Source: a virus
Lineage: Duplodnaviria > Heunggongvirae > Uroviricota > Caudoviricetes
Virus record (IMG/VR): IMGVR_UViG_2568526312_000010
Direction: 5' to 3' (one strand)
Length of the DNA: 64,000 nt
Shown here: piece by piece, positions 57,001-60,000 of the stretch
Position numbering within the stretch: position 1 is the stretch's first letter
How the letters are laid out: every line of letters begins with the position of its first letter
Position numbers: made by a program

Positions 57001-60000
57001 CAACGGAAAATTTTCTGGGTATTACGGGCCAGGGCTTCCGGATGGCTGTCGTCATACAGTTCCGGGAACGTCATTCCCAGCTCGAAATACGCTTTGGTAA
57101 TTTTCGCAGCCGGTACTTTTTCGCCGTCCGGATGCGCCCAGACATTCATCGCCATGCGGATGTGTTCATGCTTGATTTTCATGAATCAACTCCATCAGAT
57201 AAGCATGCACTACAATCACCTTCAGCATGAACTACATGTGTTTGCCCCAAACGAATGCCGCTCGCATACTCAGGCCAAATAAGCTCCCAATCATGGGGTC
57301 GTAGCTCCGCCCTACTTACTTGGCCTTCCGTCGCAGATTCGATCATAAGGGCGCGGGTTGGAGATATAGCTGTTCGTCCAGACGCCATTTGCGATAAGTA
57401 AGATGGCGATACACCAAGTCTGGCCGCGAATTTCTTAGCATCACCAACCCTTAATGATTTAATAAACTCTTTTAATGTCATACCTTCCTCGGTTTAGTGT
57501 TTTTTTGCGAGTTTAGTGTTTAATAAACCATTAAGTCAAGTATTTGCTTGTTTAGTGATTACTAAAGATAATTACCACATGCAAAAAAAAGAAATTCGCC
57601 GTTTACGTCTCAAGGAGTGGTTTAAAGATAAAACTCTGCCACCCAAAGAGAAGAGCTACCTATCTCAACTAATGAGTGGGAGAGCCTCGTTTGGAGAAAA
57701 GGCTGCCAGAAGAATAGAGCAAACATACGGGATGCCGGAAGGGTATCTGGATGCGGAATACGCAGAACAACCGGGGGGTTCTCCACCACATGCAGGGTTA
57801 ACGTCTAATCAACTGGAATTATTGCAGATTTTTTCAGCCTTCCCTGAGGATGAGCAACGCCAGATAATCAGCGAGTTAAAGCAGAAAAAAGAATCAATGG
57901 AAGATCTCATAGCGAGATGGATTGCGGCGCAAAAATGCCGCCGCGCCTGAGTTATAAAACCGGAGGAAACATGAATAGAGCCCTTTCACCAATGGTTTCT
58001 GAATTTGAAACCATTGAACAAGAAAACAGTTACAACGAATGGCTGCGTGCGAAAGTAGCAACGAGCCTTGCAGATCCGCGCCCAGCAATTCCCCATGACG
58101 AAGTTGAGCGCAGAATGGCAGAACGCTTTGCTAAGATGCGCAAGGAACGGAGCAAGCAGTAAAATGTTACCCGTGTTATGGCTTGAAAGCGCAGATACCG
58201 ACCTAGATGATATAACTAGTTATATTGCTCGTTTCGACATAGATGCGGCTGAACGCTTATGGCAGCGATTAAGGGGTTGTGTGCTGCCGTTATCCGAACA
58301 TCCGTATTTATACCCACCAAGCGACAGAGTACCTGGCTTGCGTGAGATTGTAGCCCACCCTAACTATATAATTCTATACCGCGTAACAACATCAAGCGTT
58401 GAAGTAGTAAACGTGATCCACGCAAGACGCCAGTTTCCCTAACTTTCACTACCAATAGAAACATAACAACCGCAACGACTTTATCAAAAGCGTTGTGTTT
58501 GTTATGTCCCGCGGTTTAGTTTTTACTTGACTTAAGTTTAATGTTTATTAAACTAAAAATACCAACCCACCCCGCCCCACAGAACGCAGGGAAATACTTC
58601 GAGTTACCCGGCAGTGGTCAGGGGTTAAGTAGCCAGCCCGAGGCGTATGAACATGACGGCAGGGTTCAACTTTAATAACTATGCAGCAGGTTTTTGTTCC
58701 GCTACCCCGGCGTTAAGGGGAAACAGAGGGTTTCTCAGTGGGCGAAGTCAAACATCAGAATGGAAGGCATCCCGGGATCGGCAAAGAAGCAGCAATGGCG
58801 CTTTATATTGACATCAGCGCCATTGCAGGACAGGTAAGAGTTATCAGAGCGGTAACTAAGCGGTATGCGCCTTTACTTCAGAAAGTCTCTGGTGAGTGCA
58901 CCGAAGATATTGTCAACGATTTCGTCATCGAACTGCGAGGACTCATCTTCAGTTACAAGGTGACCACAATTTTTGCAGATGGCTCCCGCGAAACTGTCAG
59001 AGCCCTGCGGCTTAAAGGATGTGTCAAAGACTTCGCCACCACATTCTGGGCAAGAAAACTTGATTGTATTCATAACCAATTTCCTCTCGAGTAACAGACC
59101 CCTCAGAGGATACCACCTCGCCTGACGTGGTTAAAAGCAGGCAACGCTAACCACAAGGAGCCGACATGCAGAAACGAGAACCCGTCATCATCGCGCCAGA
59201 CTATACCGATGATGAACTTTATGAGTGGATGCACCAGAAAATTAATGCAGCGCAGGATCTGAAATGGGCCAATGAAGCCAGGGCTAAGCAGGCTGAAAAT
59301 CTGTCCGCTCTGGAGCAGGATATCACCAATCTGGAAAAAGCAGCGGCATTAAGCATTGCCAGAATGATTACATACCCGCGTTAATAGCTAACCAACGAAG
59401 CTAAGGTTGGTAATTAAGGAGTTCTCCACGGGTGAGGTGGAGTGCGTGCGCCGGACACGGGTGAGCATACGGCACTGACAGTTTACTGAAAGGATATTTC
59501 CCTGAAAAGTCAGACCATAACGCGAAAGCGCACGGCGAGGTAGCTGGTTCATAGATAGCCTGTCGTTAAATTTTCGTCGACCGTGCGCTTCCGGTTGTGG
59601 CAATCCGCGAAATGGCGCGGCGGTAAGTATGGAGGGGTTATTCCTTCCCCCGTTGAGGACACCGGGTTGTCAGGTTGACCATACGCTTAAGTGACAACCC
59701 CGCTGCAACGCCCTCTGTTATCAATTTTCTGGTGACGTTTGGCGGTATCAGTTTTACTCCGTGACTGCTCTGCCGCCCTTTTTAAAGTGAATTTTGTGAT
59801 GCGGTGAATGCGGCTGAGCGCACGCGGAACAGTTAAAACCAAAAACAGTGTTATGGGGGGATTCTCTGTATCCGGCGTTAATTGTTAACTGGTTAACGTC
59901 ACCTGGAGGCACCAGGCACCGCATCACAAAATTCATTGTTGAGGACGCGATAATGGAAACGTTATTACCAAACGTTAATACGTCTGAAGGTTGTTTTGAA

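Follow-up and report, generated by a model that had tools for sequence, protein, structure and literature searches.

The immunity region of phage lambda is laid out with cI-rexA-rexB between the left operator and promoter (OL/PL) and the right operator (OR) with its promoters PRM and PR. Two prophages of Escherichia coli K-12 have comparable control regions: Qin, in which a CI-like repressor, DicA, acts at operators at OR and at the dic-operon promoter and switching occurs spontaneously in a subpopulation (Bejar 1988; Ragunathan et al. 2023, PMC10448788), and Rac, with its RacR/YdaS/YdaT genes. The closest described system is the paaR2-paaA2-parE2/ydaS-ydaT locus of CP-933P (Sp12), a cryptic lambdoid prophage found in E. 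coli O157:H7 (Hallez et al. 2010; PMC8630535). Here we analyze positions 57482 to 58560 of a 64,000-nucleotide (nt) stretch of Caudoviricetes DNA (IMG/VR record IMGVR_UViG_2568526312_000010; the whole stretch is called the window below). We are highly confident that this region is the immunity module of CP-933P itself, with PaaR2 in the role of CI; it is the same locus as the published one, from which it differs in nothing.

The identification rests on the DNA match to O157:H7 together with the structure, Pfam, and DicF matches. Many chromosomes of E. coli O157:H7 match the segment 57100-58900 with 100% identity, and among 5,426 complete E. coli genomes, 591 contain at least 80% of this segment. 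Residues 1 to 71 of PaaR2 match the "Phage repressor protein CI" structures 7nkv, 8c3k, and 8c3l in PDB (E=5e-41 for 7nkv and 8c3k), PaaA2 matches 3zbe and 5cw7 (E=5.5e-37), and ParE2 matches 5cw7, 5cze, and 5czf (E=7e-60 for 5cw7_B); all three proteins match characterized ones in the same order. The original prediction of a three-gene repressor-antitoxin-ParE operon, headed by a CI-type repressor gene and divergent from ydaS/ydaT, was right in both respects: the three genes lie on the plus strand and ydaS and ydaT on the minus strand. In the RefSeq annotation of the identical locus, one strand encodes a transcriptional regulator next to a protein of the YdaT family, and the opposite strand encodes a hypothetical 123-amino-acid (aa) protein, a RelB-family antitoxin, and a RelE/ParE toxin. 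Farther along, RefSeq lists the ECs_2282 zinc-binding protein, then ydfC, dicB, and ydfD, and finally genes for an exonuclease and an excisionase and the remnant of an integrase adjoining ynfA. The control of three promoters by PaaR2 and the riding of the toxin-antitoxin pair in the immunity operon were already published in 2021 (PMC8630535), and the locus therefore adds no new biology. New here are the exact coordinates, the statistics, the finding that distant relatives keep both operator clusters, and the recognition of the toxin-antitoxin pair as cargo. The elements of the region are as follows:

56757-57182, minus strand, ydaT, CII-like activator (Pfam YdaT_toxin; PHROG "CII-like transcriptional activator"; function in PMC8630535 and PMC9986795)
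57172-57189, no strand assigned, YdaT box TTGATTTTCATGAATCAA in the PRE933P region at the ydaS/ydaT junction (the only match in the window to TTGATT-N6-AATCAA, with 0 mismatches)
57179-57481, minus strand, ydaS, Cro-like repressor (Pfam YdaS_toxin and HTH_3; Cro analogue in PMC8630535)
57482-57578, no strand assigned, OR divergent promoter/operator region, 97 bp (motif and promoter scans; published electrophoretic mobility shift assay, EMSA, footprint, and rapid amplification of 5′ cDNA ends, 5′ RACE)
57579-57950, plus strand, paaR2, CI-analogue repressor, 123 aa (PDB match; PHROG transcriptional regulator)
57971-58162, plus strand, paaA2, antitoxin, 63 aa (Pfam PaaA2; PDB 3zbe/5cw7)
58164-58442, plus strand, parE2, ParE-family toxin, 92 aa (Pfam ParE_toxin; PDB 5cw7_B)
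58461-58507, plus strand, stable hairpin between parE2 and PL (inverted repeat; -24 kcal/mol, z=-4.3, with 0 of 200 shuffles as stable)
58514-58554, plus strand, OL/PL933P with operators at 58514-58531 and 58536-58553 (motif and promoter scans; inside the published PL933P-gfp fragment)
58559-58723, plus strand, early-left leader of about 165 nt (conservation and mosaic junction)

The OR region coincides exactly with the 97 bp that separate paaR2 from ydaS, and both PaaR2 and YdaS shift and footprint it, as reported from EMSA and DNase I experiments (PMC8630535). The operator is an 18-bp palindrome, GTTTAnT-N4-AnTAAAC, of which the short motifs first noticed in this region are parts. Matches to it lie in OR at 57511-57528 (0 mismatches) and 57550-57567 (1 mismatch), and after parE2 at 58536-58553 (0 mismatches) and 58514-58531 (2 mismatches); a further OR site at 57492-57509 has the left half only. 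Three palindromes with no more than 1 mismatch were found, against 0.12 expected in 64 kb, and none of 100 shuffles gave three. The heptamer GTTTAGT occurs five times in 64 kb, with four copies within two short regions (57492, 57511, 57550, and 58514), while chance would supply 4.24 copies in the whole window and about 0.01 in the 153 bp concerned. The motif TTGACTTAA occurs only twice in the window, once per region, at 57531-57539 on the minus strand and 58527-58535 on the plus strand. A repeat search returned the same five-copy motif family, and elsewhere in the window no cluster of PaaR2 operators was found, only scattered single sites with 2 mismatches at 876, 15193, 48749, and 63392. The statement that the same motifs stand in the divergent region and again after parE2 is borne out by the presence of the palindrome at both places, and the coordinates given for them were accurate.

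Two promoters are overlapped by the operators in OR. PR933P, found by the promoter scan on the minus strand, has the -35 hexamer TTGACT at 57539-57534 and the -10 hexamer TAAACT at 57515-57510, with a spacing of 18. The hexamers of PRM933P, read from the sequence, are TTGCTT at 57544-57549 and GATAAT at 57567-57572, and its transcription start is the A of the paaR2 ATG at 57579; the paaR2 mRNA is leaderless, as published with the 5′ RACE data, and PaaR2 has been described as a CI analogue (PMC8630535) for which octamers in solution are cited in the same paper. Fusions of gfp to PRM933P, PR933P, and PL933P support control by PaaR2, YdaS strongly represses PRM933P, and the PaaR2/YdaS switch is bistable (PMC8630535). 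The locus also has a counterpart of CII together with its site at a promoter for repressor establishment: YdaT activates the PRE-like promoter PRE933P (PMC8630535), the YdaT-box consensus is TTGATT-N6-AATCAA (PMC9986795), and the box lies at 57172-57189. As is expected of a lambdoid switch, the repressor gene and the cro-like gene diverge from a short stretch in which several operators overlap two promoters. In the manner of lambda CI, PaaR2 binds the palindromes at OR, overlapping PRM933P and PR933P, and would bind those at OL about 1 kb away; it may loop the DNA between them. YdaS acts as the Cro-like protein at the same operator regions, and YdaT as the CII-like protein at the promoter in the ydaS/ydaT junction.

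The second operator cluster (58514-58554) lies on the far side of the repressor operon, over an outward promoter. A promoter with the -35 hexamer TTGACT at 58527-58532 and the -10 hexamer TAAACT at 58549-58554 (plus strand, spacing 16) was found by the promoter scan inside the cluster, and these hexamers are identical to those of PR933P, the ydaS promoter; the cluster itself is therefore the promoter. The -35 hexamer falls in the right half of the first OL operator and the -10 hexamer in the right half of the next. This corresponds to PL933P as published by Jurenas et al. (mBio 2021, PMC8630535), a promoter with three operators (OL1-3) whose -35/-10 hexamers are those of PR933P and which the plasmid description in that paper places beside parE2. 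The published primers map to the window at 58443-58463 (F-PL-SacI) and 58539-58560 (R-PL-BamHI), giving a PL933P fragment of 58443-58560 that contains the downstream cluster of the original prediction; that cluster is therefore the published PL933P/OL. The cluster had been placed in front of a separate conserved dic-operon promoter, which is wrong, as it contains the promoter, and the conserved sequence starts only at about 58559. The suggested reporter fusions turned out to have been made already: PL933P-gfp is repressed about 100-fold by PaaR2, and likewise by YdaS (PMC8630535). Repression of PL933P by YdaS just as strongly also means that loss of PaaR2, or a switch to the YdaS state, need not open PL, and the idea that prophage derepression opens the downstream operon is not supported as it was written. 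Of the proposal that one repressor governs the toxin-antitoxin operon, the cro-like operon, and the dicF-dicB operon, the published footprint and reporters uphold the control by PaaR2 of its own toxin-antitoxin operon, of the cro-like operon, and of a third promoter after parE2; the extension to dicF-dicB is plausible and is taken up below.

The likeness to lambda includes a repressor gene divergent from cro, a repressor operon with operators at either end, a PL that reads in the direction of the repressor gene, a leaderless repressor mRNA, co-transcribed cargo, a CII-like activator, and a division inhibitor in the PL operon. CP-933P differs from lambda in its operator sequence, in an OR of four equally spaced palindromes (PMC8630535), in an OR-OL spacing of about 1 kb, and in a repressor without the RecA-cleavable S24 domain. 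Its cargo is a ParE toxin-antitoxin pair, not RexAB, and a 165-nt leader follows PL in place of the N gene. The hairpin at 58461-58507, in a tImm-like position where relatives have canonical terminators, is likely to be a terminator or insulator of the repressor operon.

Relatives of PaaR2 were sought in a scan of one genome per species, which gave 27 loci, or 28 with the window. Their DNA-binding domains are 43 to 76% identical, and their hosts include Photorhabdus, Xenorhabdus, Yersinia, Erwinia, Morganella, Arsenophonus, Raoultella, Massilia, and Mycoavidus, among others. The sequence upstream of the repressor gene is strikingly similar in nearly all of them, with the palindrome at about -67 and about -29 from the repressor ATG; a further group of sites follows 445 to about 2,300 bp downstream. 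Over all loci, 58 sites with no more than 1 mismatch were counted, compared with 1.05 in shuffled sequence, and both operator clusters are kept in 22 of the 28 loci, contrary to what would be seen if the motifs were not conserved in related prophages. A -35-like hexamer lies 16 to 17 nt upstream of the operator TAAAC in 20 of these 22; the site of the window itself is missing from that result because of a one-base offset and was confirmed by the promoter scan. A YdaS homologue is present in every relative with enough flanking sequence. Several relatives carry the same DNA-binding domain fused to Peptidase_S24, which indicates that the operator specificity belongs to ordinary CI-type phage repressors. 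The PaaR2-type DNA-binding domain with its paired OR/OL operators is an old and widespread immunity specificity that is found across Gamma- and Betaproteobacteria.

These comparisons also bear on the label of a "three-component toxin-antitoxin system" given in the original description (Hallez 2010, as cited in PMC8630535), according to which PaaR2 would be a dedicated regulator of the pair and the downstream motifs chance or vestigial. The absence of a DNA-binding domain from PaaA2, whose sole Pfam match is the toxin-neutralizing PaaA2 family, fits that view. However, the 27 relatives, which have no toxin-antitoxin pair, have kept the repressor with its Cro-like partner and the two operator clusters, the palindrome counts are far above chance, and the downstream cluster is a complete PaaR2-responsive promoter. 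We consider a dedicated regulator extremely improbable. Nor does the locus conform to a classical autoregulated type II toxin-antitoxin system, as PaaA2 is without a DNA-binding domain and PaaR2, YdaS, and YdaT regulate instead. The locus shows a toxin-antitoxin pair inside a phage immunity operon, regulated by a borrowed phage repressor.

Within this immunity module, the paaA2-parE2 pair is passenger cargo in the slot between the repressor gene and PL, as rexAB is in lambda, since neither PaaA2 nor ParE2 was found in any of the 27 relatives. The distance from repressor to OL varies among the relatives with the inserted content, which supports the published suggestion that paaA2-parE2 was inserted into a pre-existing immunity region. 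The content of the slot differs by prophage, from ParE pairs with two heteroimmune repressors to HigBA, other genes, or nothing. The second of these repressors is found in the PaaR1-type loci of E. coli (L037 and L038), in which ydaS/ydaT likewise diverge from an operon of repressor, antitoxin, and ParE genes; beyond that operon come a terminator, OL/PL, the same leader, and dic genes. They differ in a 133-aa HTH_3 repressor and in the palindrome ACAGTTTTTnATTGT at OR and OL, the OL copy lying in a TTGACA promoter after parE, and are heteroimmune. Further observations on the slot come from single loci. In an O111:H11 prophage (L031, 730-1394) with a helix-turn-helix (HTH) repressor, the slot is filled by HigBA, encoded on the opposite strand, and in one strain (L036) a PaaR2-like repressor is accompanied by another HTH gene and a PaaA/ParE pair. 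The block from paaR2 through paaA2, parE2, and PL to the leader is also present, at 98.6% identity, in the deposited genome of Escherichia phage Evi (LR597642, 40 kb; L041, 1043-3340), where DicF and then Kil follow downstream; the PaaR2 immunity type thus exists outside cryptic prophages as well.

Co-transcribed with the repressor gene, paaA2-parE2 acts as an addiction module upon loss of the locus; the pair stabilizes a plasmid, and ParE2 acts at locus loss by post-segregational killing (PMC8630535). A different outcome had been expected, namely, that derepression of the switch frees ParE2 as the shut-off of PRM starves the cell of labile PaaA2. The degradation of PaaA2 by ClpAP/ClpXP, the killing upon loss of the locus, and the strong repression of PRM933P by YdaS all agree with this expectation (PMC8630535). 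The published data contradict it, because an SOS reporter revealed no ParE2 activity in either switch state: SOS-positive cells made up 0.876% versus 0.953% between the states (P=0.62), the same as in cells without the construct, and in the dual-reporter strain the toxin-antitoxin operon was still transcribed in both states (PMC8630535). Release of ParE2 by derepression is accordingly improbable.

Alignment places the start of the widely conserved, unannotated leader sequence after PL933P at about 58559, at or beside the predicted transcription start, with a mosaic junction at that point. The leader (58559-58723) is found at 87 to 97% identity in more than 3,000 E. coli genomes, always immediately after a PL-type promoter, although the operators of these promoters are quite different, and stands behind unrelated repressors, including RacR (Rac K-12), LexA-family repressors, a 140-aa repressor, and the HTH repressor with HigBA. 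Its core is present in at least 120 IMG/VR contigs, and isolated phages carry it as well, including an Actinobacillus phage (Pasteurellaceae) at 74.5% identity. In Rac, which has the same gene layout and a KilR division inhibitor downstream, the leader lies between racR and ydaG at 87% identity; the repressor and operators of Rac are unrelated to those of CP-933P, and its slot has no toxin-antitoxin pair. The conservation is one of primary sequence, in two blocks. As a single sequence the leader folds no better than shuffles (z=+1.0), and a comparison with Rfam returned no family at the gathering score or at E<=5. Two candidate features of the leader were rejected. A structured RNA gave -16 kcal/mol in RNAalifold with 85 variants, with a covariation term of -0.87 and double changes at 2 of 30 pairs, and a small open reading frame (ORF) from the ATG at 58653, in frame with ydfA in some variants, is broken by indels and a stop in others.

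A second copy of the leader lies in the window at 10799-10954, after a LexA-family repressor and before a second DicF. It belongs to a second immunity/early-left region at about 10035-12367, which has a LexA-family CI gene with its own operators, a PL-like promoter (TTGACC...TAAACT) at about 10757-10785, a ydfA-like gene from 10966, and DicF at 12316-12367 (75 bits). As it is without PaaR2-type operators, this region serves as an internal control.

Beyond the leader, the plus strand of CP-933P leads to the dic genes, with one gene of the opposite strand on the way:

58873-59079, minus strand, zinc-ribbon ORF of the ECs_2282 family, antisense to the PL transcript (NCBIfam ECs_2282_CxxC, 57 bits)
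59166-59384, plus strand, ydfC (RefSeq; 96% identity to Qin K-12 from here on)
59727-59778, plus strand, DicF small RNA (Rfam RF00039, 76.7 bits)
59953-60141, plus strand, dicB, cell-division inhibitor (ORF; RefSeq on the identical locus)

From ydfC onward, the identity to Qin K-12 is 96% over 59166-61188, and the synteny ydfC-dicF-dicB-ydfD with the DicF RNA is that of a Qin-type dicBF region. The last 28 nt of the leader (58696-58723) are also common to both prophages, standing just before the first early-left gene. The repressor and operators of Qin are different, and Qin has no toxin-antitoxin cargo; in CP-933P the antisense zinc-ribbon gene replaces ydfA-ydfB, and most of the leader is not in Qin K-12. 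Carriage of dicBF by CP-933P has been noted before, and O157:H7 holds several dicBF copies on different prophages (PMC5069750). The Qin promoter dicBp is repressed by DicA, and its derepression makes cells filament in a manner that depends on DicF and DicB; the ydfABC-dicF-dicB region, in which no internal promoter was detected, is transcribed as a whole from the PL-equivalent promoter (PMC10448788). Given this DicA/dicBp precedent, it is reasonable to infer that PL933P controls dicF-dicB, and control of the CP-933P dicF-dicB genes by PaaR2 through PL933P is plausible. The PL933P transcript would comprise the leader, run antisense across the zinc-ribbon gene, and then continue through ydfC-dicF-dicB-ydfD-exonuclease. 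A literature search for PaaR2-DNA complexes, or for PaaR2 together with dicB, returned only PMC8630535, a YdaT structure paper, and a Rac YdaT paper.

Alternatively, PL933P may be insulated, its transcript ending in the leader or in the zinc-ribbon gene, so that dicF-dicB of CP-933P would be silent or otherwise driven; this concerns the extension to dicF/dicB only. The segment 58724-59165 differs from Qin, where ydfA-ydfB sit, and the absence of an internal promoter in Qin therefore does not cover it. Further, the convergent gene in the path has a promoter-like site of its own at 59090-59063 on the minus strand, the leader is rich in C and poor in G at its 5′ end, which could resemble a Rho entry site, and the published paper draws no link to dicF or dicB (PMC8630535). 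Against insulation, the promoter/terminator scan predicted no plus-strand promoter-like or terminator-like site between PL933P and dicB, and in particular no plus-strand promoter-like site in 58560-59166. In Rac, in Qin-like prophages, and in others with dic or kil genes farther on, the same leader stands directly 5′ of the first early-left gene, and the Qin ydfABC-dicF-dicB transcript starts at the PL-equivalent promoter (PMC10448788). We regard insulation of PL933P as possible but doubtful.

Several points weigh against the reading of the locus as a PaaR2-governed lambdoid module that extends to dicF-dicB. The path from PL933P to dicF measures 1.17 kb, and a continuous transcript would have to cross the convergent zinc-ribbon gene. 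The hairpin at 58461-58507 is without a canonical T-tract, which makes its role as a terminator uncertain. The 123-aa PaaR2 matched no Pfam family and no Peptidase_S24 domain in the Pfam search, and thus has no RecA-stimulated self-cleaving C-terminal domain of this kind. Such a domain is common but not universal in lambdoid repressors, and DicA and RacR have been reported to be without SOS induction. PaaR2 itself is reported to be unresponsive to mitomycin C, its action at OL rests on reporter repression, as the EMSA and footprint cover the 97-bp OR region, and the ORFs that directly follow PL933P could not be given a function (PMC8630535). Residues 72 to 119 of PaaR2 weakly resemble the C terminus of DicA (E=1.4e-6 to NCBIfam PRK09706, a score that falls well short of the family cut-off), which hints at a shared oligomerization domain.

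With PL933P taken as the promoter that reads toward dicF-dicB, a stronger proposal can be put forward tentatively and with low confidence: the ydfC-dicF-dicB genes of CP-933P may have PL933P as their sole promoter, and, in addition, the leader of about 165 nt could be an undescribed cis-acting early-left element (serving, for example, antitermination, Rho control, or processing) instead of a mere spacer. If this were true, the bistable PaaR2/YdaS switch would determine how DicF and DicB differ from cell to cell in enterohaemorrhagic E. coli. The link to DicF/DicB could matter in O157:H7 given the several dicBF copies on its different prophages.

A plus-strand ORF of 118 aa at 58738-59094 was considered as the first gene after PL and rejected; it matches PHROG 21318 (phage annotations) and is probably not coding, though the data are thin. 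Among the four codon changes seen in variants, the minus-strand frame has 3 synonymous and 1 nonsynonymous, and the plus-strand ORF has 0 and 4, which favors the minus-strand zinc-ribbon gene. The two reading frames overlap (58738-59094 on the plus strand and 58873-59079 on the minus strand), and phage Evi is annotated with the former and RefSeq with the latter.

Elsewhere in the window, Rfam matches comprise an ALIL pseudoknot at 27209-27325 (an IS3-type frameshift element), two sok antitoxin RNAs (hok/sok) at 4932-5106 and 52707-52881, STnc100 at 48597-48769, and five tRNAs at 389-638 and 49545-49791. These matches fit two tandem lambdoid prophages with insertion sequences.

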